This document shows positions 779 through 55,031 of a DNA stretch of 64,000 nt, one piece after another; position 1 is the stretch's first letter; each line of letters opens with the position of its first letter. Position numbers and translations under genes: made by a program. The DNA is from Alphaproteobacteria bacterium. Lineage in GTDB: Bacteria; Pseudomonadota; Alphaproteobacteria; CAAHEQ01; UBA3637. The DNA lies in assembly GCA_045631185.1 (NCBI GenBank), contig JAZQUH010000034.1, forward strand, positions 42,916 through 106,915. The letters run 5' to 3'. The notes beneath the pieces were generated by a model. That model saw only the letters and a program-made list of their open reading frames with translations. It did not search any database and was not told the origin of the DNA.

Positions 779-1033
779 TTGGAAAGAGTATACTCCAAAA
801 ACAAGGCAGAATTTGAATATATGAGAAAGGAATTAAAGATGAATCCAACAGTAGTAGGTAGTATCTATGGAACAGCAATAGGCACAGCCATTTGTTTGAG
901 TGTTGTTTATAGTTGTTGGTTGGCAAAACAACGTAAAAAGGATCCGCCACCTCAAGTCAAATTATCTGATAATGGAGATGAAGAAAAACTGGCTTGTTCC
1001 ACCAAATACATCAAAGCTATTTGTCGGGATTAG
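779..1033 (+). CDS. small hypothetical membrane protein (one TM helix); likely starts at internal ATG 839 (MNPTVV...)
   Basis: ORF with hydrophobic segment VVGSIYGTAIGTAICLSVVYSCWL. AAGGA RBS 8 nt before ATG at 839. Confidence 0.3.
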   Translation: MERVYSKNKAEFEYMRKELKMNPTVVGSIYGTAIGTAICLSVVYSCWLAKQRKKDPPPQVKLSDNGDEEKLACSTKYIKAICRD

Positions 1034-1195
1034 AACGATCGCAGTAAGTCCGTGTATAGCAAGATGACCCCAGCCAAACCGCACATAACGCCAATTATTG
1101 GCGTTTTTTCTTTTATTTCTAAGCATTTGTTCTGGTTCGAACGCAAAATTTTAAAATGGCTCATTTTTTGAGTCGGGTCGAACCATAATGGTGCT

Positions 1196-1654
1196 TTATT
1201 TTTGAATTTCTGACCTAATTTTCATTAAAACTTTCCCTATACGATTCATACCACTTCCTTCACCAAAACCACATTTATAACATACTGGGCATGATTTAAT
1301 CAATATTGCATCACCCGTGGATTTTAACAATTCTGCAGCCTCAGGGTTCTGAATAAATTTAGCATATAAAGCTTTTTCCATAATATCGAATTTGTTGGTA
1401 TCAAAATCTTTTCTGCGATTTATTTTGTATTCCGGTGTTTTGGTAAGCAATCGTGCCTCATCAGGATCTTTTAATTTTAAAATAACATCAAATCTTTTGT
1501 CTGACGCATGAAATTTCATCGCTTGATAGTAATGTTCAACACTTGGAAAAATATAATCTGCATCATCCACTGTCATTTTTATCGGAAAACCAGCCAGTGG
1601 TGATAAAAACCAATATTCCCCTTTTGGAGTACAAAATCTTATTTCTTTTGGCAT
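1196..1654 (-). CDS. NADAR-domain protein (YbiA-like N-glycosidase, DUF1768)
   Basis: 152-aa ORF with SVEHYYQAMKF motif typical of NADAR/YbiA family. Confidence 0.55.
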   Translation of the reverse strand: MPKEIRFCTPKGEYWFLSPLAGFPIKMTVDDADYIFPSVEHYYQAMKFHASDKRFDVILKLKDPDEARLLTKTPEYKINRRKDFDTNKFDIMEKALYAKFIQNPEAAELLKSTGDAILIKSCPVCYKCGFGEGSGMNRIGKVLMKIRSEIQK

Positions 1655-1741
1655 TATAGAAACCTTTCAAAAATACTTTATCAGTAATTATTTCAGATGT
1701 CAATATAGTATGAAATCGGCTCGGAAATCGCACGATTAGTC

Positions 1742-1790
1742 CAGCCAATAAAAAAAGTCCCGTTTATCGGGGCTTTTTTTATTGATGATA
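1742..1790. repeat. second copy of tRNA-Gln 3' end (last ~8 nt) plus its downstream terminator hairpin
   Basis: tccagccaataaaaaaagtcccgtttatcggggctttttttattg matches 482-533 except for a 9-nt gap. Contains the same GTCCCG-TTTAT-CGGGGC hairpin, which works as a bidirectional terminator here. Confidence 0.75.
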
Positions 1791-6647: not shown

Positions 6648-7198
6648 TGAAATTGTTGGTGGGATTGGGCAATCCGGGAACGGAGTATGCAAAAACTCGC
6701 CACAATATGGGATTTCAGGCGGTGGACGAACTTGTCCGCCGCTTTTCCTTTGATGCTTTTAAATCTGAACACAAAGGTTTGCTTGCCAAAGGCCAAATTG
6801 CCAACGAACGTTGCTTAATACTAAAGCCTGAAACTTATATGAATTTGTCGGGTGAATCCGTTCAAAGCGTAATGGCTTTTTATAAAATTCAACCTCAGGA
6901 TATTATTGTTTTTCATGATGATTTGGATTTACCTGTCGGTAAAGTGAAAGTAAAAATTGGTGGTGGCAGTGGTGGTCATAACGGTATCAAAAACATAGAC
7001 TCGCATATCGGTGTCAATTACATGCGTGTCCGCATTGGCGTTGATAAAAATAAAATGATTGATACAGCCAATTATGTATTGGGCAAACCGTCCGCTGATG
7101 AGCAAAAGATTTTGGATGTTTTATTTGAACAAATTGCCCAAAATGTTGAATTATTACTAAAAGGCGATATGTCCGCCTTTATGAATAAAATTAAATGA
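6647..7198 (+). CDS. pth: peptidyl-tRNA hydrolase
   Basis: MKLLVGLGNPGTEYAKTRHNMGF signature. Confidence 0.9.
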   Translation: MKLLVGLGNPGTEYAKTRHNMGFQAVDELVRRFSFDAFKSEHKGLLAKGQIANERCLILKPETYMNLSGESVQSVMAFYKIQPQDIIVFHDDLDLPVGKVKVKIGGGSGGHNGIKNIDSHIGVNYMRVRIGVDKNKMIDTANYVLGKPSADEQKILDVLFEQIAQNVELLLKGDMSAFMNKIK

Positions 7199-8274
7199 AT
7201 GAACGTGAAATTTCGGTTTTGTCAGATTTGATGAGGGTTATTGATAAAAAACCCGCCGTTGCCCCTGAAATCATTAATGATTATTTGGCCAAACACAAAT
7301 TTATAAAAGGTCCTGAAAAGGCCGAATTTTTGCAATCTGTATGGTCTATGATACGGGCCAAAGCGCGTTTGATTTGGGCCTATCCGGATGATGATTGGCA
7401 AGGCCGTGTTCAAAAGTTCATAGAAAACGGCATTCCTGATGTATCCCAGGCACCCGATTGGGTTCAATGGGAAACGCCCGAATGGTTTTTGTCGCATATT
7501 CCTGAGGCGAAAAACGAACTGCCAGCCTTAATGGAAAATCCGCCAATTATTTTAAGGGCTATCGGTCATCGTAATGAGATTTTGGAAAGCCTGAAAAAAG
7601 AAGGCTTGGATGTAGCTCCTTGCGATAAATCCCCCTTTGGGATTGTTTTAAAAACATATGCCAATATAAAAAATACAAATGCCTGGAAAAAAGGATGGTT
7701 GGAAATTCAAGACGAAGGAGCCCAATTATTATCATTGGAAATTGGCATAAAACCCAAACAATCTGTTTTTGATTTTTGTGCAGGCGCCGGTGGTAAATCG
7801 TTAATTTTTGCCCAAATGATGCAAAATCAAGGACAAATTCAGGCCTATGATATAACGCCCAAAAAATTATTTGAATTGGTCAAACGGGCCACTCGGGCAC
7901 AAATTAAAATCATTAAAATTATCACAAAATTGGAACGCCCTGATAAAAAGTTTGATCATGTGGTGGTGGATGCTCCTTGTTCGGGTTGTGGTACATGGCG
8001 CAGAACACCGAATATGCGTTGGCATTTAACCGAAAAACAATTAAAACATATCACAAAGACGCAAGCCGAAATTTTAAATCGGGCTGAACAATATTTAAAA
8101 ACAGGTGGTTATTTGTCATATATTACCTGTTCTTTAACCTTTGATGAAAACGAACAACAGGTTGAAAAATTTTTATCTGAACATCCTAATTATAAGGTTA
8201 TCAAACAAAAACGCTATTCGCCATATCTGACAAAAACAGATGGTTTCTTTTTGTGCGTTATGCAACGTAATTAG
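7195..8274 (+). CDS. RsmB/Sun-family RNA cytosine-C5 methyltransferase
   Basis: SAM-binding DFCAGAGGKS and catalytic DAPCSGCGTWRR motifs. Confidence 0.8.
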   Translation: MNEREISVLSDLMRVIDKKPAVAPEIINDYLAKHKFIKGPEKAEFLQSVWSMIRAKARLIWAYPDDDWQGRVQKFIENGIPDVSQAPDWVQWETPEWFLSHIPEAKNELPALMENPPIILRAIGHRNEILESLKKEGLDVAPCDKSPFGIVLKTYANIKNTNAWKKGWLEIQDEGAQLLSLEIGIKPKQSVFDFCAGAGGKSLIFAQMMQNQGQIQAYDITPKKLFELVKRATRAQIKIIKIITKLERPDKKFDHVVVDAPCSGCGTWRRTPNMRWHLTEKQLKHITKTQAEILNRAEQYLKTGGYLSYITCSLTFDENEQQVEKFLSEHPNYKVIKQKRYSPYLTKTDGFFLCVMQRN

Positions 8275-8292
8275 ATTTTTAAATGTCAAAAA

Positions 8293-9216
8293 ATGTCGAA
8301 AATAAAATTGAAGGATTCGAAGTTATTAGATGAAAATAAAAAGCCGATAGCTTTTTATCATGCAACGCCATTTCAGGGAAGAATAACATCTTTCTTTCCG
8401 TTATCGCACTTTGGAACAAAAAGAGCAGCAGAGATTCGCGCTTTGCATTTTACCTATAAGGCTTTGGGTATTCCTGAGCCGGAGGATTTTTTAGATAATT
8501 ATTCGTTTGTAAAGCAAGAAAAAAAATTAGAAAATTTTCAATATCCGAAAATAACAATATATGATGTTTTTTTGGCCGTTAAAAGACCTTTGAAAATTCA
8601 TGATTTTGGTTGTCACTCTTTGGCACAATATTGTTCTTGGTTTTTATATATGTACAAACCAAAATCTCAATTTTTATCTGGTTCGGAAAGATGTGAGGGG
8701 GACGTTGTTGGTCCAAATAAAATAAAATATAAAAAACATTTGACGGATTTCATTTTTGTTGATCCATTTACCCGTTCTGAAAAGGATTTAAAAAATGAAT
8801 TGAGGGCGGAATCTTTATATAATGATTCAAAAGATTTGAAAAATAAACCTGATTTGCTTCCGTCTTTTCTGCATTCAGTTCGATCTCAGGTAAATCCTGA
8901 TAATTTTTCTTTGGCACAAAAGGTTGCATTTCAACGTATGATTCGTTTTCTGGAAGGTGAGGGATATGATGCTTTTTCTTATTTAAACGATTATGAGGAT
9001 AAAGGAAAGAGCAGTTATATTATTTTTCGTCCACAACAGGTTTTTATAGATCAGAAAACAGGAGTAGAGCATATTATACCCGATGTAAATTCAAAATTGT
9101 TGCAAGAAAATGAAAACGCTTTCTTTTTACAAAGAGGAATTCTCTCGCCCAGTCAAAGAATACAAAAAAGCAAACAATTTGGATACAGCACTTATTTAAA
9201 AAGACAGTGCCGATAA
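8293..9216 (+). CDS. hypothetical protein (no recognisable domain)
   Basis: 307-aa ORF following rsmB. Confidence 0.4.
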   Translation: MSKIKLKDSKLLDENKKPIAFYHATPFQGRITSFFPLSHFGTKRAAEIRALHFTYKALGIPEPEDFLDNYSFVKQEKKLENFQYPKITIYDVFLAVKRPLKIHDFGCHSLAQYCSWFLYMYKPKSQFLSGSERCEGDVVGPNKIKYKKHLTDFIFVDPFTRSEKDLKNELRAESLYNDSKDLKNKPDLLPSFLHSVRSQVNPDNFSLAQKVAFQRMIRFLEGEGYDAFSYLNDYEDKGKSSYIIFRPQQVFIDQKTGVEHIIPDVNSKLLQENENAFFLQRGILSPSQRIQKSKQFGYSTYLKRQCR

Positions 9217-9441
9217 TTACTTTATTTTTTGTTGATCTTGTTTTATGGCTGTACTCTTATGGACGCAAATCCGTTCGGGTTTTTGTTGAGTGGGATTTTC
9301 AAATTTCACAAGGTCTTTTTTTTTCTTTAAATTATTTACAGAATAAACAATACAATTTGGATAATTCATTTTAAGTCCTTTTAAGTTTCTTGTATTGTAG
9401 TATTTTTTATTTCAAAAGTCAACTTTTTTCAACTAAATCGC

Positions 9442-9469
9442 TTGATAAAGTGATAAAGTTTGCTAGTGT
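9442..9469 (+). promoter_or_regulatory. sigma70 promoter TTGATA-16-TAGTGT; family-specific promoter shared with the 23825 and 53020 copies
   Basis: cttgataaagtgataaagtttgctagtgtgggga versus cttgacaaaggcgataaagttcgctagtatgggga at the other two loci. Confidence 0.6.
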
Positions 9470-9503
9470 GGGGATAATTAATAAATAATAAAGGGAGATA
9501 AAA

Positions 9504-10070
9504 ATGCAAAATTTAAGAAAAACAAACGAAACAGGCCGTTCTATGCTTGAAATGTTGGGCGTTCTGGCTATCATTGGCGTTTTAAGTGTTGCTGGTGTTG
9601 CGTGGTTTCATCCAGGGCCAGGCTGGAATAATTCGGGGTATCTTTTACTAAAATATGAAGGTTGTGGATGGCCATATGATGGAAAACTTGGGACGGATAA
9701 AAAAACGTGTTGCAGTGTTGAGGGCTATGCTTGGAGGGATGCGTATGTTGGCTATAATGATGTAAAAACTCAAATTTGCGGATGTCCTATGCCTAATGAT
9801 GGTACTACACATGCACCGGTATTGGGAACTGACGGTAAAACGTGTTGCAGAGATGGATTGACTTGGTATGATGCTAATCGTAATTATACTGCTGCAAGTT
9901 TATATTGTGGTGGATGCCCAGAAGATGGAAAAGTAGGAAAAGACTCTAAAACCTGTTGTAAAGATGGAAAATATTGGCATGATTATGAGGTTGGTTATTT
10001 CTATGAAAGTGAAGTTTGCCAAGGAATATACCCCCCCCCGCCCAAATCGGACGGGGGATTTTTAATATAA
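9504..10070 (+). CDS. type-IV-pilin-like (class III signal) cysteine-rich repeat protein, short paralog
   Basis: N-terminus MQNLRKTNETG|RSMLEMLGVLAIIGVLSVAG with Gly(-1), Glu(+5) and a hydrophobic helix. Strong GGGAG RBS. Three ~42-aa Cys-rich repeats (CGCP..DG..G.D.KTCC.DG..W.D). C9 tract at 10031-10039. Confidence 0.7.
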   Translation: MQNLRKTNETGRSMLEMLGVLAIIGVLSVAGVAWFHPGPGWNNSGYLLLKYEGCGWPYDGKLGTDKKTCCSVEGYAWRDAYVGYNDVKTQICGCPMPNDGTTHAPVLGTDGKTCCRDGLTWYDANRNYTAASLYCGGCPEDGKVGKDSKTCCKDGKYWHDYEVGYFYESEVCQGIYPPPPKSDGGFLI

Positions 10071-10646
10071 AAACGGATTATAGGCCCATTGGAGCAAGGC
10101 TTGGCGTTGTTTGGGCCGACAGGTTAACTCATTGGCCGAACAATGCTTTTTTAATTGTATCAGGTGGCGTTTGAAGTTTTTCCATCGTTTAATTTGAATG
10201 GCATCAATTTCGGGAATTCTGCGCCCCATATAATATCGGCAATACCATTGAAACCACCCCCTTGGATCAGGGGGATAAATCCAACCTTTTTGTTGCCATT
10301 GCCTTAAACTCATGCGTGATTTAACACCAAAACAGTTTAAGCTGATTTCGGGATTTTTATTGTTTATTCGGGCATTTTGAAACCAATCATGCGGAAATTC
10401 CCTTTGGCAATCGTTCATATAATGCCCCTCAAACACGCCCAGCTCCAACATTTGCTTTGGTGTGAGGGCAGGGCAAAAATCAGGGGCAAAATTTTCCCCT
10501 TCGTCCTCGCTGTATTCATATTGATAGCCCAATTGCATCTTATCAAAAACAATCATATCAGGGATATAATTGGTTGTTCGTTTTTTTTCAATAGTAAAAA
10601 AGTGAAAATATATTTGCGTTTTTTGTGAAAATATGCTATAAAGCAC
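10062..10646 (-). CDS. conserved hypothetical protein
   Basis: 194-aa ORF convergent with, and overlapping by 9 nt, the pilin-like gene. Confidence 0.4.
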   Translation of the reverse strand: MLYSIFSQKTQIYFHFFTIEKKRTTNYIPDMIVFDKMQLGYQYEYSEDEGENFAPDFCPALTPKQMLELGVFEGHYMNDCQREFPHDWFQNARINNKNPEISLNCFGVKSRMSLRQWQQKGWIYPPDPRGWFQWYCRYYMGRRIPEIDAIQIKRWKNFKRHLIQLKKHCSANELTCRPKQRQALLQWAYNPFLY

Positions 10647-10676
10647 CTTATCAATTTTTAAAACGAAAGGTGAAAA

Positions 10677-11984
10677 ATGTCAAAACTGAAACAATCTTTG
10701 AAAATTACAATTAAAGCTGAAGCTTTTGCCGATAAGATGAATGCCCGCTTGGAAGATTTGCGTAAAAACGCCAAATTGCCGGGGTTCCGTCCGGGTCAGG
10801 CCCCTTTGGCGATGATTCGTCAAAAATATGAAAACTCTGTTAAAGGCGAAGTTTTGGATGATTTAATCAATGAACAGGTGATGGCCACATTAAAGGAAAA
10901 AGAATTACGTCCGGCTATGCGTCCTGCCATTAAAATGGACAAATATGAAGACGGCAAAGATATTGTTTTGACGGTTGATTTTGAAGCTTTGCCCGAAGTC
11001 AAAGTCAAACCCTTTGATAAAATCACTGTTGAAAAAATGGTGGCAACTGCCGGTGATAAAGAAATTCAGGATACTTTGGATAAATTAGCAACTGCCAAAA
11101 AAACATCTGAATTATTGGATGAAGACCGTGCCACAAAAACAGGCGATGTCGTTGTGATTGACTATGTCGGTTCCATTGATGGTGAAGAATTTAAAGGCGG
11201 TAAAGGTAAAGGCGCCTATTTGGAATTGGGTTCCAACACATTTATCCCCGGTTTTGAAGATCAATTGGTTGGTCACAAAGTGGGCGATAAAGTGGATGTC
11301 AATGTGACTTTCCCCGAAAATTATCATGCCAAAGATTTGGCCGGTAAAAAAGCTTTGTTTAAAACAGAAATCAAAGAATTGCGTGCTTGGAAAAAGCCTG
11401 AATTCAATGATGAATTCGCCAAACAATTCGGTTCCGATACAATGGATAAATTAAAGGAAATGATTAAAGCTGAATTGGATAAAGAATATACTCGTGTGGC
11501 CCGTATGCATGCCAAACGTGCTTTGTTTGACGCTTTGGATAAAGAATATGACTTTGAAATTCCTGAATGTATGTCCAAGGCCGAAATGGATGGTATTTGG
11601 GCCCAATATGAACAGGCCAAGAAAACAGGTCAGTTGGATGAAGAAGAAAAGAAAAAATCCGAAGCTGATTTGAAAAAAGATTATCAAAAAATCGCTGATC
11701 GTCGTGTGCGTTTAGGTTTGTTGTTGGCTAAGATTGCCGATGAAAATCAAGTCAAAGTGGAACGTGAAGATTTGACAAACGCCATTATGGCCGAAGCCCG
11801 TCGTTATCCCGGTCAGGAAAAACAAGTCTTTGAATACTACACCAAAAATCCTCAGGCGGTTGAAGCAATTCGTGCCCCGATTTTTGAAGAAAAAGTTGTG
11901 GATTTTGTTTTGGGTAAAGTTCAAACAAAAGAAAAACAAATTTCTGTGGCTGACTTGTATGCCTTTGATCCCGATAAAAAATAA
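10677..11984 (+). CDS. tig: trigger factor
   Basis: 435 aa with N-terminal ribosome-binding, FKBP-type PPIase (FKGGKGKGAYLELGSNTFIPGFEDQLVGHKVGD) and C-terminal domain. Confidence 0.9.
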   Translation: MSKLKQSLKITIKAEAFADKMNARLEDLRKNAKLPGFRPGQAPLAMIRQKYENSVKGEVLDDLINEQVMATLKEKELRPAMRPAIKMDKYEDGKDIVLTVDFEALPEVKVKPFDKITVEKMVATAGDKEIQDTLDKLATAKKTSELLDEDRATKTGDVVVIDYVGSIDGEEFKGGKGKGAYLELGSNTFIPGFEDQLVGHKVGDKVDVNVTFPENYHAKDLAGKKALFKTEIKELRAWKKPEFNDEFAKQFGSDTMDKLKEMIKAELDKEYTRVARMHAKRALFDALDKEYDFEIPECMSKAEMDGIWAQYEQAKKTGQLDEEEKKKSEADLKKDYQKIADRRVRLGLLLAKIADENQVKVEREDLTNAIMAEARRYPGQEKQVFEYYTKNPQAVEAIRAPIFEEKVVDFVLGKVQTKEKQISVADLYAFDPDKK

Positions 11985-12056
11985 AAGGCCTGCCTGGATA
12001 AAATAAACAAAGGGGGCTGAGTATCAAAAGCCCCTTTTTGAGTAAAAGGATAAACA

Positions 12057-12848
12057 ATGGTATCTAAAAAAACTCAGGAAATTGCTTTTAATAAGTTACG
12101 TCAAATGGCAAAAGATAATACTATTTGTTTTACATATTATGAACCTCCTTATTATGGTGTGGGCTGTGGACGAGATCGTTCAGTGGATTGGAATGGACCA
12201 CTTCTATTTTATAAAAAAGGGGAATCACGTGAAGAGATCTTTTTAAGAACCATGTGTTGTTTACTAGATGCTGATTTTCCAAGATTTTTAAAGCAAAAAG
12301 AAAATGAGAGAAAATTGGTTCATCTCCTTTTGGAAGCTGGATTGAATCCTAACATGAAATATAATGAAAAAAGTATTTTTTTACTCTTTGTTAAAAAGGG
12401 TAGAGTGGGTCCAGCACTGGAAATTGCCCAACATCCTGATTTTCGTTTTCCAAAAGGAGAGGAGGGGGCAGTTTTTGATAAACTTTCTTTCAATCTTAGT
12501 TCAAGTAGATGGCATCATCCTTGTTATAATTGGATTAATATAGAGCAGGATAGTCTTCCTGATTGGGCAAAGGATAGAAAAAAGCGTTTGCAAGAAAAAT
12601 TACCTGAGGCTATGAAATATCATAGAATTTGGCAGGAAGAGACAAAAGATTTAGCTTTTCTTCTATTTCAAAAAGGATTATATCCTTCAAATGAGAGATG
12701 CTTTGAAAAATTGGCTCCTGTCGTTTTAGAAAAAGATCCCGATTTTTTCAATAAAAAGAAAAAACAAGTAATATCCCAAATTCAACATGCCAAAACACCA
12801 ATTCAAATTTATAATGCCCTGATGGGAAAAAGAAAGGAGAAAAATTAA
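12057..12848 (+). CDS. ankyrin-like repeat hypothetical protein inserted between tig and clpP
   Basis: [29 protein letters not shown] resembles the ANK consensus. Confidence 0.4.
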
Positions 12849-23824: not shown

Positions 23825-23853
23825 TTGACAAAGGCGATAAAGTTCGCTAGTAT
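23825..23853 (+). promoter_or_regulatory. near-consensus sigma70 promoter TTGACA-17-TAGTAT, identical to the copy at 53020
   Basis: ttgacaaaggcgataaagttcgctagtat. Identity with the 53020 locus runs on for about 780 bp downstream. Confidence 0.65.
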
Positions 23854-23887: not shown

Positions 23888-25297
23888 ATGATTTTAAACC
23901 ACGATAAAGGTATAAATAAAGGAACCTTGTACACACACACACACACATTTAATTTTGAAAAGATAAAATCCGCCGAAGGCGGACGTTCCATGTCCGAGAT
24001 GTTGGGGGTATTGGCCATCATTGGTGTATTAAGTGTATCGGGTATTGCGGGTTATCGCCACGGTATTACCAAACACCGTGCCAATATCACATTAAACGAT
24101 TCACGCATGGCGTATATGGAATCCAAAACACGCCCAAATGTGCCTGACCACGCATGGCATGATGTTTCGCATAACTTTGATTCAGGCAAAACATTCCAAA
24201 TGTTGCGTGATAAAAAGGGCAACAATTATGTCAAAGTCATGGAGGTTGATGAAAGGGTTTGTCGTCAGATTTTAAAAATGTCCGTATCGGGCAGGTTGTC
24301 ATTTTTAACCGAAAACGGGGAAAATAAAACCGATTGTAGCGAAGAAAATAATATCGTGATATCATGGGATGGTTTGGGCAAACCCAGCGATTGTGAAATA
24401 AAAGCCGATTGTGGTGAAAATTTTGCGGGTATTTGTACAAATCAAGGCCATTGTCGCTTATGTGATACGGCAACGGAACGGATGAATTCGGATGGCACGG
24501 CGTGCGAATGTGACCCCGAAAAAGCTGTATCATGCACAGATGGTGGCGAAAGCACATGGTGTTGTGGTGCCGGCCTTATCTGTGATAAAGAAAATCAAGG
24601 CTGTAAAGCGGGCACGGGCGGATGTCAATACAACTTTACGCAACAGGTTTATACCCGTTCGTCCAATTGTTCGTATATTATATCCACGCAAGAACAAACC
24701 CGTTCATCCAATTGCCATTACACGGTTCGTGATTATGTGATTGAAGGTTCTTTGCACGGTGTGGAAATGACGCAAATCCAAGGATGTCCATCGGGTGAAT
24801 ATTGTTTGCTCGGCTATTTTGATAATGAATGTACATCATCCATCAACCGTGGGGATGTGGGGGCATCGGGCGCCGAAGACGTTTATGGCGTTTGTTTAAA
24901 ACGCACCATGAACGGCGGTACATGTGACGTCAGCACGGTATCCACCGCCTTTATGGATGAAGTTCAAGGATGTCCATCGGATGAGTATTGTTTAATCAGC
25001 TATTTTGACGAAGAATGTACATCATCCATCAACCGTGGTGATGTGGGTGCAACGACGCCCGAGCAAGTTTATGGTGTTTGTTTAAAGCGCACCATGAATG
25101 GTGGCACATGTGATGTAGCCGAAATTGCCGAAGGCAGTTTAACCGAAGTGCAAGGTTGCCCCGCGGGTCAATATTGTTATTTAAAATGGCAAGGAAGCGA
25201 TTGTTCCACAGCCATCAATAAAGGCGATATAACTGGGCCGATGTTCGGTGCGTGTTTGGAACGCACATCCAACAATGCCCAATGCCCGATAAAATAA
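23888..25297 (+). CDS. type-IV-pilin-like Cys-rich modular surface protein, long paralog 1, with prepilin-type leader in frame
   Basis: Leader MILNHDKGINKGTLYTHTHTFNFEKIKSAEGG|RSMSEMLGVLAIIGVLSVSGIAG with Glu(+5) and a hydrophobic helix. GGGAG RBS. Conserved N-terminal globular and EGF-like Cys module. Three ~60-aa C-terminal repeats (QGCPSGEYCLLGYFDNECTSSINRGDVG...VCLKRTMNGGTCDV). Confidence 0.7.
   Translation: MILNHDKGINKGTLYTHTHTFNFEKIKSAEGGRSMSEMLGVLAIIGVLSVSGIAGYRHGITKHRANITLNDSRMAYMESKTRPNVPDHAWHDVSHNFDSGKTFQMLRDKKGNNYVKVMEVDERVCRQILKMSVSGRLSFLTENGENKTDCSEENNIVISWDGLGKPSDCEIKADCGENFAGICTNQGHCRLCDTATERMNSDGTACECDPEKAVSCTDGGESTWCCGAGLICDKENQGCKAGTGGCQYNFTQQVYTRSSNCSYIISTQEQTRSSNCHYTVRDYVIEGSLHGVEMTQIQGCPSGEYCLLGYFDNECTSSINRGDVGASGAEDVYGVCLKRTMNGGTCDVSTVSTAFMDEVQGCPSDEYCLISYFDEECTSSINRGDVGATTPEQVYGVCLKRTMNGGTCDVAEIAEGSLTEVQGCPAGQYCYLKWQGSDCSTAINKGDITGPMFGACLERTSNNAQCPIK
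23931..23947 (+). repeat. (CA)8 dinucleotide tract (17 nt) inside the leader-encoding 5' region of the pilin-like gene
   Basis: acacacacacacacaca. The paralog at 53126-53138 has a 13-nt tract. The 4-nt difference changes the reading frame relative to the upstream ATG. Confidence 0.9.
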
Positions 25298-25364
25298 TTT
25301 AAATTTTAATGCCTGAACAACAAGAACAATATAAATAAATAACTTAAATAGAAAGGAGTATAAA

Positions 25365-25826
25365 ATGAAACAATCAACAAAAACATTATCCATTATCTTT
25401 GCCATCACATTGGGGGTTAGCACATCAACCATGGCCTATACATCCTGTGTGGGTGGAACGGAAATCACGGCCAATGCCCACACGGATGCGGATGCCCCCG
25501 ATACATGCACCGCGGATCATTGCCCCAGCCCCGCCAAAAGCTTTTGTATCAGCAATGTGAAATTGAATTGGTGGAGTGCCTTTAATTGGTGTCAAAGCAA
25601 TGGTGGCACTTTGGCTGCATTTAATTCTGCTTGTCCCAATACACCGGTGCGTAGCAATAATACGGCGGGGGCTTGTCCCGCTTTACAAGGTGTTGGTGAG
25701 AGTAAATACTATTGGACATCCATGGGATCGGGAACAAGCGCCGCCCTCCTCGTGAATCTTTCCTCCGGTGCTGTCTACTTCGACGTCCGCAATTACGCCA
25801 GCGCCATCTACGCCCTGTGTGAGTAA
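25365..25826 (+). CDS. small secreted C-type-lectin-like (CTLD-like) protein, partner of pilin-like paralog 1
   Basis: Signal peptide. KLNWWSAFNWCQSNGGTLAAFNS resembles the CTLD W.eA..yC...Gg.Las motif. C-terminal ...AIYALCE resembles the CTLD ...fiCE end. AAAGGAG RBS. Paralog at 54591. Confidence 0.45.
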   Translation: MKQSTKTLSIIFAITLGVSTSTMAYTSCVGGTEITANAHTDADAPDTCTADHCPSPAKSFCISNVKLNWWSAFNWCQSNGGTLAAFNSACPNTPVRSNNTAGACPALQGVGESKYYWTSMGSGTSAALLVNLSSGAVYFDVRNYASAIYALCE

Positions 25827-45465: not shown

Positions 45466-46158
45466 TTATTTATTTTTCAATAAATAATTTCGTCCGTCCG
45501 GCAAAGATCCGTTCAGGGCGTTTTTTTGTAAAAAGAATCCGGTTAAAAAAAGTCCGTCTTTTAAGTCGGTTGTTTTAATGACTTCAGTGTTTTCTTGCCA
45601 TAAAAATCGGGGCAGTGGTAATAATTTATCACGATAGGGTAAGCCTTTTTCATAACTGACGGCTCGTCCGGTTTTGGGTGATACAAAAGCCAAGTTATTT
45701 TTATCGCCACCTCCGGCACAATCCGAAAAATCCAATCCAAAGCCCAATTCCTGTAACAAATTTAATTCAAAAATAATATAATGTTTTACATAATCTTTGT
45801 TGTTTAAGTTATTGATTAAAATAAAAACTTCATCATATAAATTAGAATAAGATTGGCGTTCCGGTAAAGTTTTATTTAATAATTCACAAATACATCTGAT
45901 GCAGCAAAGCCGTGGCCAATCATCCATGTAAAAACCAGAGATTGATTTTAAATTTTCCAAATAAAAGGTTCCCAATTGTTCGCTTAGGCGGGCTTGCCAT
46001 CTGCCGTTGACAATGTCTGCGGGTTGTGGGGCGGATTTGCCTTTATAAACGCCTAAATAACGCCCGTTTTCTTTTGTTAGTAAAGAAACGATAAAAGATT
46101 TTTCTCCCAGCTTTTTAGCCCCCAAAACAATAGCGTTATTGTACTTTTGTTCAGGCAT
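45466..46158 (-). CDS. recO: DNA repair protein RecO
   Basis: N-terminal OB-fold pattern (AIVLGAKKLGEKSFIVSLLTKENGRYLGVYKG). 230 aa, immediately downstream of era. Confidence 0.75.
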   Translation of the reverse strand: MPEQKYNNAIVLGAKKLGEKSFIVSLLTKENGRYLGVYKGKSAPQPADIVNGRWQARLSEQLGTFYLENLKSISGFYMDDWPRLCCIRCICELLNKTLPERQSYSNLYDEVFILINNLNNKDYVKHYIIFELNLLQELGFGLDFSDCAGGGDKNNLAFVSPKTGRAVSYEKGLPYRDKLLPLPRFLWQENTEVIKTTDLKDGLFLTGFFLQKNALNGSLPDGRNYLLKNK

Positions 46159-47032
46159 TAAAATTTAATCCCCATTGTTGGTATTGATTGACGTCATCCA
46201 CCCAATCTTGGCGTACTTTTACAAATAAGAACAGGTTGACTTTTTTGCCCAATTGGCGTGTCATTTCCATACGGGCTGCTTCGCCGATTTTTTTAATCAT
46301 TTTACCGCCGGCACCCAAAATGATGGATTTATGGGCGGTACGGGAAACAATGATGTTTTGTTCGATACGGATGGATTGTTTTTGTTCTTTAAAGGAAACA
46401 GGTTCTACTGTTAGTTGATAGGGCAGTTCTTCTCTTAAATATAAAAACAGCTTTTCCCGTGTAATTTCGGCACAAAAAAGTTTATCGGGTAAATCAGTCA
46501 GTTCTTCATCGGAAAACATCCAAGGTCCATTGGGTGCATTTTCCAATAAATAATCTTTTAATTCTTTAACGCCTTCGCCTGTTTGGGCGGATACACAAAA
46601 AACAGTTTTGATATTTTTAATATCGTTCAAAGTGGTCAGTCTTTTTATCAGTTCATCTTTTTGAAGCAAATCAATTTTATTAAAGACCAAAATGACGGAT
46701 CCTTTTATTTTTTGTAAGATGGAAATATCCGTTTCTGTCAATCCTTTTTTGGCATCCATAACCATCATTTGCAAATCAGAATCGGCTGATTCTGTCCAAG
46801 CACAATCAAGCATAGCTCTGTCCAATCGGCGTTGCGGTTTGAAAATGCCCGGCGTATCCACCAACACCAATTGAGTTTCGTTTTCGGTTAAAATACCACG
46901 TACACGGGATCTTGTTGTTTGAACTTTGGGTGAAACAATGCTTATCTTTTCCCCAATCAACCGATTGATAAGGGTTGATTTGCCGACATTTGTTTTTCCG
47001 ATAATGGCCACAAAAGCGAATTTAGTTGTCAT
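46151..47032 (-). CDS. era: GTPase Era
   Basis: G1 GKTNVGKST, G2/G3 and C-terminal KH domain. Confidence 0.9.
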   Translation of the reverse strand: MTTKFAFVAIIGKTNVGKSTLINRLIGEKISIVSPKVQTTRSRVRGILTENETQLVLVDTPGIFKPQRRLDRAMLDCAWTESADSDLQMMVMDAKKGLTETDISILQKIKGSVILVFNKIDLLQKDELIKRLTTLNDIKNIKTVFCVSAQTGEGVKELKDYLLENAPNGPWMFSDEELTDLPDKLFCAEITREKLFLYLREELPYQLTVEPVSFKEQKQSIRIEQNIIVSRTAHKSIILGAGGKMIKKIGEAARMEMTRQLGKKVNLFLFVKVRQDWVDDVNQYQQWGLNFNA

Positions 47033-53019: not shown

Positions 53020-53048
53020 TTGACAAAGGCGATAAAGTTCGCTAGTAT
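53020..53048 (+). promoter_or_regulatory. near-consensus sigma70 promoter TTGACA-17-TAGTAT (copy of 23825-23853)
   Basis: Identical 29-nt promoter. Identity with the 23824 locus starts exactly at cTTGACA. Confidence 0.65.
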
Positions 53049-53125: not shown

Positions 53126-53138
53126 ACACACACACACA
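53126..53138 (+). repeat. (CA)6 dinucleotide tract (13 nt), two units shorter than at 23931
   Basis: gtACACACACACACAttt. Puts the upstream RBS-served ATG (53083) out of frame with the pilin-like ORF. That frame stops at 53155-53157 after 24 codons. Confidence 0.9.
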
Positions 53139-53180: not shown

Positions 53181-54575
53181 ATGTCCGAGATGTTGGGCGT
53201 ATTGGCCATCATTGGTGTATTAAGTGTATCGGGTGTTGCGGGTTATCGCCATGGTATTACCAAACACCGTGCCAATGTTACATTAAACGATTCACGCATG
53301 GCGTATATGGAATCCAAAACACGCCCAAATGTGCCTGACCACGCATGGCACGATATTTCGCATAACTTTGATTCGGGTAAATCATTCCAAATGTTGCGTG
53401 ATAAAAAGGGCAACGATTACGTTAAAGTCATGGAGGTTGATGAAAGGGTTTGTCGTCAGATTTTAAAAATGTCCGTATCGGGCAGGTTGTCATTTTTAAC
53501 CGAAAACGGTGAAAATAAAACCGATTGTAGTGAAGAAAATAATATCGTGATATCATGGGATGGCTTGGGCAAACCCAGCGATTGTGAAATAAAAGCCGAT
53601 TGTGGTGAAAATTTTGCGGGTATTTGTACAAATCAAGGTCATTGTCGCTTATGTGATACGGCAACGGAACGGATGAATTCGGATGGCACAGCGTGTGAAT
53701 GTGACCCCGAAAAAGCGGTATCATGCACGGATGGTGGCGAAAGCACATGGTGTTGTGGTGCCGGTCTTATCTGTGATACAGAAAACAAAGGCTGTAAAGC
53801 GGGCGATGGAAAATGTACCTATTATTTTAACGAATCGGATGAAACATCAGAATACACCACCGATTGCAGTTATACCCTATCCGATGAAAGCAATGTTGAA
53901 TATTACTATTCAAATTGTTATTATACCATTGGATCAACACCGTCGATGACCAGTCAGGTTATCGGTAATACCACGCAATCATTATCACATCCGAATATAG
54001 GTTCTTCGACCCCCCGTGGCGGATGCCCCCCGAATCAATATTGTACATTGTTGTGGACGGGAACCCCCATTGAAACCCAGGGAAACAACTATATTTTTGC
54101 ATCCAAACCCACATCGGCATCGGCGGGAATGACGGGTATTTTATATGGCAAATGTCAAACATTATCGGGTAATGATTCAACGCCATTGACGGAAAACAAA
54201 AACGGATCGGGTCAAATGGTGGGCAATGGCGCCCGTGGCGGATGTCCGGAAAATCAATATTGTTTATTGATGTGGAAACAACAATCATGGACGGGAACCG
54301 GCGAACCCAAACTTACCGCATCGGATACGGGTGAAATGTATGGTAAATGCCAAATGTTATCCGGCAATGATGCCACCCCAAAAATTGCCGAAGGATCAAC
54401 ATTTACACGGTATAGGGTGGGGCAAGGATGCCCGATTGGGCAATATTGCCGTTTATTGTGGAAAAATGAAAGTTGTACAAATCTGACGGCTTCGGATATG
54501 GGTGGGTTATCGGGTGTTTGTTTATCCATGTCCGGCCCAACGCCGGGTACGATTGATTGCCCTTATAAACAATAA
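53181..54575 (+). CDS. type-IV-pilin-like Cys-rich modular surface protein, long paralog 2, with leader region out of frame (phase-OFF or 5'-truncated)
   Basis: First 205 aa about 95% identical to paralog 1. C-terminal module replaced by three different repeats (GGCPxNQYC.L.W...YGKCQ.LSGND). The in-frame sequence upstream of ATG 53181 reads ..EGGRSM but reaches a stop at 53112-53114 with no start codon. Confidence 0.65.
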   Translation: MSEMLGVLAIIGVLSVSGVAGYRHGITKHRANVTLNDSRMAYMESKTRPNVPDHAWHDISHNFDSGKSFQMLRDKKGNDYVKVMEVDERVCRQILKMSVSGRLSFLTENGENKTDCSEENNIVISWDGLGKPSDCEIKADCGENFAGICTNQGHCRLCDTATERMNSDGTACECDPEKAVSCTDGGESTWCCGAGLICDTENKGCKAGDGKCTYYFNESDETSEYTTDCSYTLSDESNVEYYYSNCYYTIGSTPSMTSQVIGNTTQSLSHPNIGSSTPRGGCPPNQYCTLLWTGTPIETQGNNYIFASKPTSASAGMTGILYGKCQTLSGNDSTPLTENKNGSGQMVGNGARGGCPENQYCLLMWKQQSWTGTGEPKLTASDTGEMYGKCQMLSGNDATPKIAEGSTFTRYRVGQGCPIGQYCRLLWKNESCTNLTASDMGGLSGVCLSMSGPTPGTIDCPYKQ

Positions 54576-54590: not shown

Positions 54591-54986
54591 ATGAAAAAAA
54601 ATTTAATGATTTTATCTGTGCTTGTTTTGGTTATGTCCACGCCGGCGTTGTCGGCGACTTGTGCCAACGGTGCGGGAACGCAGGTGATAGGTGTGGATGG
54701 CGAAACATATTGTCGTTCCAATGTGAATATGAATTGGTGGAGTGCGTATGCATGGTGTGATGCCGCCAATATGACATTGGTTTCATTGGACAGATGTAAT
54801 GGTAAAAATGGCAATATTACGGGGGAAGTTGCCTGTCCCAATTTTAAAGGGACGGGGGGCTCTGTGACTTGCTGGACATCTTCTGTGCCAAACAGCTCTT
54901 TCGCCTTCAACGTGAATCTTTCTTCCGGTGCTGTTTTCAACAGCCACACCCGTAACTACTACAGCCTCTACGCCCTCTGTGAGTAG
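54591..54986 (+). CDS. small secreted C-type-lectin-like protein, partner of pilin-like paralog 2
   Basis: Signal peptide. NMNWWSAYAWCDAANMTLVSL CTLD-like motif. C-terminus ...SLYALCE. 15-nt gap after the upstream gene with AAAGGAAA RBS. Confidence 0.45.
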   Translation: MKKNLMILSVLVLVMSTPALSATCANGAGTQVIGVDGETYCRSNVNMNWWSAYAWCDAANMTLVSLDRCNGKNGNITGEVACPNFKGTGGSVTCWTSSVPNSSFAFNVNLSSGAVFNSHTRNYYSLYALCE

Positions 54987-55005
54987 AGTTCTCGGCTTTT
55001 TAAAT

Positions 55006-55023
55006 ACTGCCCCGATTTATCGG
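55006..55023. terminator. bidirectional terminator hairpin (CCCCGA-TTTA-TCGGGG)
   Basis: Between convergent lectin-like and comF genes. Same TTTATCGGGGC core as the terminators at 505 and 1762. Confidence 0.5.
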
Positions 55024-55031
55024 GGCCGAAT

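Follow-up and report, generated by a model that had tools for sequence, protein, structure and literature searches.

The stretch of DNA considered here raises the question of why two small secreted proteins, encoded at separate places and each located behind a long pilin-like gene, end in nearly the same C-terminal sequence. The stretch, referred to below as the window, comprises 64 kb of a 153-kb (153,074-nt) contig (JAZQUH010000034.1) of an uncultured alphaproteobacterium and has a G+C content of 37%. The initial annotation had described the two genes, designated W1 and W2 here (Table 1), as C-type-lectin-like partners of pilin-anchored Cys-rich proteins and had proposed a two-part adhesin that binds host glycans. 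Both genes, predicted to encode signal-peptide proteins of ~130-150 amino acids (aa), are real; their products have 153 and 131 aa and contain the motifs that were quoted. The present analysis indicates that W1 and W2 are very probably the variable proteins, or targets, of a diversity-generating retroelement (DGR) and are tied to their pilin-like partners.

The C-terminal segments of W1 and W2 carry a variable-region signature

W1 and W2 share 44% identity across 100 aa (E 3e-19), and the motifs NWWSA(F/Y)xWC, GGTL/NMTL, NLSSGAV and YALCE are common to both. In the last 29 codons, C occupies the third codon position in 69% of the codons of W1 and 62% of those of W2, whereas ten housekeeping genes of the window give a background of 14.6%. 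Across the alignment of this segment (81 nucleotides, nt), the differences between W1 and W2 are distributed over codon positions 1, 2 and 3 as 12/10/3, a ratio that is the opposite of neutral drift.

An alignment of 30 close homologs (A3; about 80-90% identical) localizes the variation further. Scaffold columns have a mean entropy of 0.19 bits, a value that rises to 1.32 bits over the final 30 columns, and the hypervariable columns comprise 12 at the C-terminus and one just ahead of MNWW. Residues of the types encoded by NNC codons account for 344 of the 348 residues in these 13 columns. Four homologs (P0300, P0301, P0303 and P0322) are identical over their first ~125 residues and have unrelated C-terminal segments. 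As judged from these sequence patterns, the C-terminal segment of the W1/W2 family is a DGR variable region (VR) in a CLec-type (C-type-lectin) fold. The near-identical C-terminus noticed initially, NLSSGAV...YALCE, is present in both proteins; it is not simply structural, and represents the scaffold of the VR, so that the proteins would act as hypervariable ligand binders and not as a fixed lectin.

A second variable spot is located just ahead of MNWW, at W1 residues 65-66 (window ~25557-25562; columns 70-71 of A3, SN-VK/NG/LG/LP/NS...). This spot lies outside the VR, has no counterpart in the template repeat (TR), and might border the VR surface in three dimensions.

Table 1. Features discussed in the text, in coordinates of the 64-kb window.
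Feature	Coordinates	Strand	Basis or remark
W1: small secreted protein with predicted CTLD fold, putative DGR-target family, 153 aa	25365..25826	+	ORF, homologs, AlphaFold2, Foldseek
W1 signal peptide	25365-25436	+	By inspection, Sec-type, ...STMA↓YTSC
W1 VR-like region, last 29 codons	25737..25823	+	20/29 codons end in C, p 5e-11
W2: small secreted protein with predicted CTLD fold, W1 paralog, 131 aa	54591..54986	+	ORF, identity to W1, member of family alignment A2
W2 signal peptide	54591-54656	+	By inspection, Sec-type, ...ALSA↓TC
W2 VR-like region, last 29 codons	54897..54983	+	18/29 codons end in C, p 6e-9
W2 3' flank: IMH-like stretch TAGAGTTCTCGGCTTTTTAAAT (homology to TR 3' end), then GC hairpin GCCCCGAtttaTCGGGGC	54984..55026	+	Alignment of L007 TR, hairpin scan
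Pilin-like Cys-rich gene 1, 469 aa as ORF, W1 partner	23888..25297	+	PDB pilin profile matches, AlphaFold2 helix 35-81 and beta head
(AC)n tract, 17 nt, leader of pilin-like gene 1	23931..23947	+	Leader in frame
Promoter-like site TTGACA-17-TAGTAT, 10/12	23825-23853	+	5' of pilin-like gene 1
Pilin-like Cys-rich gene 2, 464 aa, W2 partner	53181..54575	+	ORF, nt comparison
(AC)n tract, 13 nt, leader of pilin-like gene 2	53126-53138		Upstream ATG out of frame, ORF begins only at MSEML
Promoter-like site, block as at 23825-23853	53020-53048		5' of pilin-like gene 2
Third, shorter pilin-like gene, 188 aa, MQNLRKTNETG↓RSMLEMLGVLAIIGVLSVAG...	9504-10070	+	Repeats GCPxxDGKxGxDxKTCC
CTLD, C-type-lectin-like domain; IMH, initiation of mutagenic homing; ORF, open reading frame; ↓, cleavage site.

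Relatives carry a DGR cassette beside the same gene pair

Avd, a TR and a reverse transcriptase (RT) are found beside the same gene pair in relatives that are ~90% identical (contigs L007, L009, L012 and L020). In L007, whose pilin-like gene has 94% nt identity to window 24654-25302, the order is W1 ortholog, convergent 438-aa RT, TR and bAvd gene. The RT matches RVT_1 (E 8e-20) and contains the motifs IGNLTSQ and YVDD, and bAvd is matched over the Pfam gathering score (E 6e-14). The TR reads ...AGC TCT AAC GCC TTC AAC GTG AAT CTT TCT TCC GGT GCT GTC (AAC)4 CGT (AAC)4 TAC GCC CTG TGT GAG TAG TCTTCCCGCTTTTGAAATT. An RT of this type has thousands of relatives, several of which are labelled as coming from alphaproteobacterial metagenome-assembled genomes.

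A full DGR locus is present on both L009 and L012; the latter is an 87-kb contig with a neighbouring segment 91% identical to window 824-1778, and its Avd matches the NCBIfam model DivGenRetAVD with an E value of 2e-16 that is under the cutoff of the model. In L020, the pilin-like gene, Avd, TR, RT and small CTLD gene follow one another on a single strand. An RT is additionally present in L010, which contains a stand-alone Avd-TR-RT cassette with no VR within 10 kb, and this indicates that remote targeting occurs in this clade.

The mismatches between TR and VR are concentrated at template adenines. In L012, 13/29 TR adenines are mismatched compared with 1/77 non-adenines (Fisher p 5e-8), and the corresponding values for L009 are 9/29 and 3/77 (Fisher p 3.6e-4). 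The W2 ortholog in L013, compared with the L012 TR, differs at 9/29 adenines and 1/77 non-adenines (p 2.5e-5). These results bear on the alternative explanation in which ordinary diversifying selection, or recombination between paralogous genes, produces the hypervariability with no retroelement involved. Several paralogs are present per genome, cassettes move among contexts, and the VR is polymorphic in length, which is not a classical DGR outcome. However, the mismatches keep to template adenines, C is fixed at the third codon position, the residues in variable columns are limited to the NNC set, and four independent contigs carry RT, Avd and TR directly side by side, so that this explanation is regarded as very improbable.

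The TR-core pattern (AAC)4CGT(AAC)4 retrieves one related DGR (L020), one further DGR-like locus (L025) and otherwise low-complexity noise in JGI, with no match in viral contigs. When the A-free VR core is used as an exact pattern, the only GTDB match is a fused gene without a TR in a single genome (SIG60), and JGI metagenomes give none. A phage origin of the system was considered and is unlikely, given that there is no viral-contig match and that the contexts consist of chromosomal housekeeping genes.

Three further features of the loci in the relatives were observed. The complete DGR locus of L012 (pilin-like gene, CTLD gene, RT, TR and Avd; 6972-12777) is flanked by a Resolvase (serine-recombinase) gene on one side and by tRNA-Lys(ctt) on the other (compare L009 4167-4772), which hints at a small mobile island that the window does not have. 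In L010 (9951-9985), a second copy of the TR 3' end (GTGTGAGTAGTTCTCCCGCTTTTGAAAT) occurs ~70 nt downstream, directly before the start of the RT. Additionally, ~100 nt located 3' of the VR are conserved at the nt level across very different target genes and genomes (L005 3530-3600, downstream of the fused gene SIG60; L007 1241-1340; L013 3829-3918), and this stretch consists of an IMH-like sequence, a 10-bp hairpin AAGTCTGCCcttgtGGCAGACTT and a second GC-rich palindrome.

The small proteins are predicted to adopt a C-type-lectin-like fold

The AlphaFold2 model of W1 has a predicted local distance difference test score (pLDDT) of 85, exceeding 90 over most of the mature domain, and a predicted template modelling (TM) score of 0.77. 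In a Foldseek search of this model against the PDB, the top 50 matches are all CTLDs, with a probability of up to 1.0, although the best E value is only 4e-3 and the TM scores are 0.4-0.5. The matches include the tip domain of Bdellovibrio Bd2740, snake-venom lectins, the C-terminal domain of Legionella Lcl, LOX-1 and CD69. At the sequence level, Pfam Lectin_C (PF00059) matches W1 with an E value of 0.0018 and 19.4 bits, which is under the gathering score of 22.6, and does not match W2. None of the 40 family members scanned reaches a Pfam family, and 1/40 gives any Lectin_C match. Neither the small CTLD proteins nor the pilin-like proteins are assigned to a family by Pfam or NCBIfam.

A word-index search with the small proteins retrieved 28 unnamed metagenomic homologs, and an exhaustive profile search expanded the family to 638 clusters at 50% identity. 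A typical member contains 120-160 aa with a signal peptide, six conserved Cys residues, the motif MNWWSAFxWC and a C-terminal ...LSSGAV-x4-R-x5-ALCE. The family profile also matches a metazoan multi-CTLD protein, P0095, with an E value of 1e-18 summed over 7 domains. The C-type-lectin-like fold predicted for the W1/W2 family, as it had been proposed in the initial annotation, is supported by the structural matches, the weak Lectin_C match and the profile match to the animal protein; Foldseek returned CTLDs and not a confident match to an unrelated fold.

Some strains have another residue in place of the final conserved Cys of the CTLD (YALFE or YALIE instead of YALCE; L007 1228-1236, P0011, and P0312), owing to a change at a non-adenine position. 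The replaced residue occupies the site expected for the C1-C4 disulfide, and these copies may be inactivated.

The EPN/QPD and WND motifs for Ca2+ and carbohydrate in true C-type lectins are absent from W1 and W2, as read directly from the translations. This absence is relevant to the view that the gene pair encodes a static two-part lectin adhesin that binds host glycans and whose C-terminus is conserved for structure or sugar binding. Such an adhesin would accord with the CTLD fold, with the weak Lectin_C match and with the conserved pairing with a pilin-like gene. However, the family varies most, and not least, in its C-terminal segment, this segment carries the codon signature of NNC and adenine mutagenesis, and a matching TR exists; the sub-threshold Lectin_C match of W1 and the lack of one for W2 point in the same direction as the missing motifs. 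As a complete explanation, a static lectin adhesin is already contradicted, and it is considered improbable. Of the adhesin proposed at the outset, the functional tie to the pilin-like genes is retained, as evidenced by synteny and fusions, whereas nothing in the motif and Pfam results points to the binding of glycans or of a host.

The small genes are paired with genes for pilin-like proteins

The distance from the end of pilin-like gene 1 (25297) to the start of W1 (25365) is 67 nt, and that from the end of pilin-like gene 2 (54575) to the start of W2 (54591) is 15 nt. A Shine-Dalgarno-like sequence (GGAG/AGGA) precedes each small gene, in agreement with the spacing of 15-67 nt and the separate ribosome-binding sites (RBS) originally noted. 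No promoter-like or terminator-like site is present between either pilin-like gene and its CTLD gene, and the only strong promoter-like sites of the two gene pairs are those upstream of the long genes (Table 1), where the same block is also kept in L005 and L008. The two-gene cassette is found again in L001, L006, L007, L009, L012 and L013 in differing genomic contexts, and the synteny is kept in at least four such contexts. The pairing of pilin-like and CTLD genes exceeds chance by far.

Fusions provide a second line of evidence. SIG60 (L005) combines a pilin N-terminus, a Cys-rich region and a CTLD with a VR in a single ORF of 411 aa and has the same VR nucleotide core. A CTLD is located at the end of P0344, P0350, P0363, P0366, P0369, P0370 and P0372, and P0097 carries two CTLDs. 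Because of the conserved synteny and the single-polypeptide fusions, the pilin-like and CTLD proteins are considered to be functionally linked. The two pairs of the window diverge together, in that the C-terminal halves of the pilin-like proteins differ and the CTLD partners are only 44% identical, which is compatible with cognate docking.

The long proteins have in common the N-terminal sequence G↓RSMxEMLGVLAIIGVLSVxGIAGY, in which a Gly at position -1 and a Glu at position +5 are followed by a hydrophobic helix. The class III signal G↓RSMSE-MLGVLAIIGVLSVSGIAGY is present in pilin-like gene 1 and in the third copy at 9504 and is conserved across the family, with Arg at position +1 and not Phe or Met. 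In pilin-like gene 1, the class III-like signal (G↓RSMSE) precedes a long alpha-1 helix, Cys modules resembling those of epidermal growth factor (EGF) and three C-terminal beta-rich repeats. The AlphaFold2 model of its product has an overall pLDDT of 72 and contains a helix at residues 35-81 (47 residues), strands at 102-160 (pLDDT ~75-85), and then the EGF-like modules and three beta-rich repeats. In a search of the family profile against the PDB, 8/10 matches are type IV pilin N-termini (including Geobacter PilA-N, E 0.008, FimA, PilA and TcpA), with the profile aligned to the cleavage region of the pilins. The curated prepilin models (Pfam N_methyl and NCBIfam TIGR02532) give no match at E <= 10. 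The N-terminal half of pilin-like gene 2 has ~88% nt identity to the orthologs of gene 1, and its C-terminal repeats differ.

Several additional features of these genes were observed. An (AC)n tract lies between an upstream RBS and ATG (ATGATTTTAAACC...) and the G↓RSMSE cleavage motif, and its length is 11 nt in L013/L014 (L013 1972-1982) and 17 nt in L006 (6-22). The leader sequence 'LYTHTHT' is also translated in the distant homologs P0337 and P0343, and the tract may mediate slipped-strand phase variation of the pilin leader. The third pilin-like gene is preceded in part by the same promoter-like block (~9434-9476) and has no CTLD partner downstream. A mini-ORF of 9 codons (25309-25335; ATG CCT GAA CAA CAA GAA CAA TAT AAA TAA) is located in the intergenic spacer of pilin-like gene 1 and W1; its first ~20 nt and the AAATTTTA ahead of them correspond to the beginning of the minus-strand gene at 46158 (46137-46168), and the mini-ORF may be a relic of recombination.

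The two copies in the window appear to differ in status

A number of observations weigh against the identification of W1 and W2 as pilin-associated DGR targets. Low-stringency blastn and an adenine-tolerant sliding scan of both strands reveal no TR in the window, the only match being the reciprocal one between W1 and W2. No RT is present in the window either; a six-frame scan for Y[AVIMLC]DD gives 2 matches, neither of which is in an RT context. No Avd was seen in the window, where no search aimed at Avd was made; there is no TR/RT cassette there, and Avd lies beside TR and RT in the relatives. The absence of these elements from 64 kb leaves present diversification in this genome unproven. The 3' flank of W2 differs from the canonical flank and hairpin common to the W1-type and W2-type genes of L012, L007 and L013. 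Its cognate TR was not found by exact-pattern scans of the collections searched (GTDB, JGI and viral contigs). The VR of W1 (25737-25823) is 95.4% identical at the nt level to that of L001 (6310-6396), compared with 87.7% identity between the scaffolds. On the side of the pilin-like proteins, membership in the pilin fold is based on weak sequence matches, the Foldseek search with the full-length multi-domain model gave no meaningful match and is uninformative, and no pilus machinery is present among the ten flanking ORFs scanned. Finally, the lengths of VR and TR differ in some pairs from the same contig. Every TR seen has the form (AAC)4-CGT-(AAC)4, whereas the number of codons that follow the conserved CGT in the VRs of close strains ranges from 4 to 6. 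In L007 (VR 1159-1258, TR 2626-2732) and in L012 (VR 10370-10477, TR 11846-11951), the VR exceeds the TR of the same contig by one codon. The classical mechanism does not explain this mismatch, which points to slippage of the RT along the AAC run, to a second TR or to a collapsed assembly.

Compared with the non-cognate L012 TR, W2 is mismatched at 9/26 adenines and 2/61 non-adenines (p 2e-4), whereas W1 is mismatched at 14/26 adenines and 10/61 non-adenines. The L007 TR aligns to window 54893-55005 with 82% identity over 113 nt and extends to 19 nt beyond the stop codon of W2, and a hairpin with a 7-bp stem and a 4-nt loop follows at 55009-55026 (z-score -3.4). Relative to its ortholog in L013/L014, the scaffold of W2 is 93.5% identical and the VR 74.4%. 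W2 keeps the hallmarks of a target and behaves like a competent one, which implies either that a DGR at another place in the genome serves it in trans or that it has recently been orphaned.

Neither an IMH-like flank nor a strong hairpin follows the stop codon of W1. A Peptidase_M50B-like gene begins 4 nt past this codon, at the place where the DGR cassette is located in the relatives L007, L009 and L012. The near-identity of the W1 VR with that of L001 despite the diverged scaffold, together with the 10 non-adenine differences from the TR, indicates that W1 is probably not being rewritten; the genomic contexts of the two genes differ (sodB/M50B for W1, valS for L001). W1 looks like a frozen copy. 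The VR shared by W1 and L001 has diverged less than the remainder of the gene, which suggests freezing or a recent conversion.

These findings relate directly to the possibility that a DGR wrote the two genes at an earlier time and that the genome has since lost the retroelement, such that W1 and W2 are now fixed paralogous subunits of an adhesin. The lack of RT, TR and Avd in the window, the presence of the peptidase gene, and not of the cassette, behind W1, the apparently frozen VR of W1 and the diverged flank of W2 all favor this explanation. In contrast, the window covers only 64 kb of the contig and of the whole genome, a stand-alone DGR with remote targets occurs in the clade (L010), and W2 has few non-adenine differences, TR homology beyond the stop codon and a hairpin. 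Loss of the retroelement is therefore treated as a serious possibility, rated somewhat short of even.

Proposed mechanism and implications

The identification of W1 and W2 as DGR targets leads to the following model. Each target would be a Sec-exported, disulfide-rich and compact CLec-fold domain whose last ~29 codons constitute the VR. An Avd-TR-RT cassette, as seen in the close relatives, would transcribe a TR encoding ...SS-N-AF-N-VNLSSGAV-NNNN-R-NNNN-YALCE; the RT would misread template adenines, and the cDNA would overwrite the VR, through which each of about 10 AAC codons, at positions on one face of the lectin fold, could come to specify any one of 15 amino acids. The pilin-like and CTLD genes would be co-transcribed, as had been suggested at the outset, with the fused polypeptide as the counterpart in other genomes, and the CTLD product would most likely dock onto, or be presented by, the upstream pilin-like Cys-rich protein. 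The result would be a surface fibre with a hypervariable ligand-binding tip. The family, its fold, the codon signature, the TR/VR pairs and cassettes of the relatives, the hypervariation of the VR between strains and the fusions are shown by the data above, whereas the present activity in this genome, the physical interaction between the pilin-like and CTLD proteins, the surface display and the ligand are inferred.

A broader proposal is offered tentatively and is rather unlikely to hold in full. In uncultured low-GC Alphaproteobacteria, a fibre anchored by a type IV pilin might display a compact DGR-diversified CTLD tip, in split and fused forms, on which three stacked mechanisms may act: adenine mutagenesis of ~10 codons, changes in the number of VR codons by (AAC)n slippage, and on/off switching by the (AC)n tract in the pilin leader. 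One DGR may serve several dispersed cassettes in trans.

If the identification is correct, two anonymous "hypothetical proteins" become recognizable as DGR targets, and DGR targets can lie tens of kilobases from any retroelement or occur without one. Even then, the codon signature of such targets, a 3' end rich in NNC codons within an AT-rich genome, could suffice to recognize them. The uncultured Alphaproteobacteria considered here appear to devote resources to a programmable form of surface recognition, and the compact CTLD could serve as a convenient scaffold for engineered binder libraries.

Comparison with known systems

DGR targets with a CLec fold include Mtd of the Bordetella phage BPP-1 and TvpA of Treponema denticola. 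The system described here resembles these in the location of the VR in the C-terminal CLec strands, the AAC-rich TR, the adenine-specific mutagenesis and the Avd-TR-RT cassettes, and also in TR/VR homology beyond the stop codon, a downstream hairpin, and some remote or multiple targets. Unlike Mtd and TvpA, the W1/W2 scaffold is compact and unusually small (~110 residues), has six conserved Cys residues and best matches canonical animal-type CTLDs; neither Mtd nor TvpA is among the top 50 Foldseek PDB matches of W1. The W1/W2 family additionally differs in being a free-standing secreted protein of 130-150 aa and in the variation of VR length between strains, and its scaffold matches none of the Pfam families reported for DGR targets.

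Pilus-associated DGR targets have been described for type V pili in Bacteroides (bioRxiv 10.1101/2024.11.15.621889), and these likewise combine a diversified ligand-binding protein with a pilus-type fibre. They belong to another phylum and another class of pilus, whereas the partner here has a type IV pilin-like N-terminus and the variable domain is either a separate polypeptide or fused to the pilin-like protein. A G-type pilin domain is listed among the rare VR-bearing domains in a survey (PMC11661182). DUF1566, the commonest DGR-target family, includes the C-terminal domain of Legionella Lcl and has been linked to putative pilin structures (PMC6642488). The Lcl domain (PDB 8q4e) shares a CLec-type fold with W1 and ranks 4th in the Foldseek search; however, this structural match is weak (TM ~0.3), and none of the 40 family members scanned has a Pfam DUF1566 match.

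Both the best structural match and the best PDB profile match are to the C-terminal domain of Bd2740 from Bdellovibrio bacteriovorus (PDB 8oks), which is likewise a small CTLD at the tip of a bacterial fibre. These matches are marginal (Foldseek E 4e-3, profile E 0.07), and Bd2740 differs in being trimeric and is not reported as a DGR target. With the animal C-type lectin domain (PF00059), the family shares the WxxAxxxC...GGxLAs motif, the final ...ALCE strand and the Cys pattern, but it remains under the Pfam gathering score and is devoid of the long-loop site for Ca2+ and carbohydrate (EPN/QPD, WND).

Literature searches revealed no description of this pilin-CTLD DGR family. DGRs, VRs in CLec folds and remote or multiple targets are already well established. 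What is new is the occurrence of two dispersed cassettes with no retroelement in 64 kb, a target family of compact canonical-like CTLDs that has no significant Pfam match (638 clusters at 50% identity), and the association of this family, in both split and fused forms, with type IV pilin-like proteins in uncultured low-GC Alphaproteobacteria.

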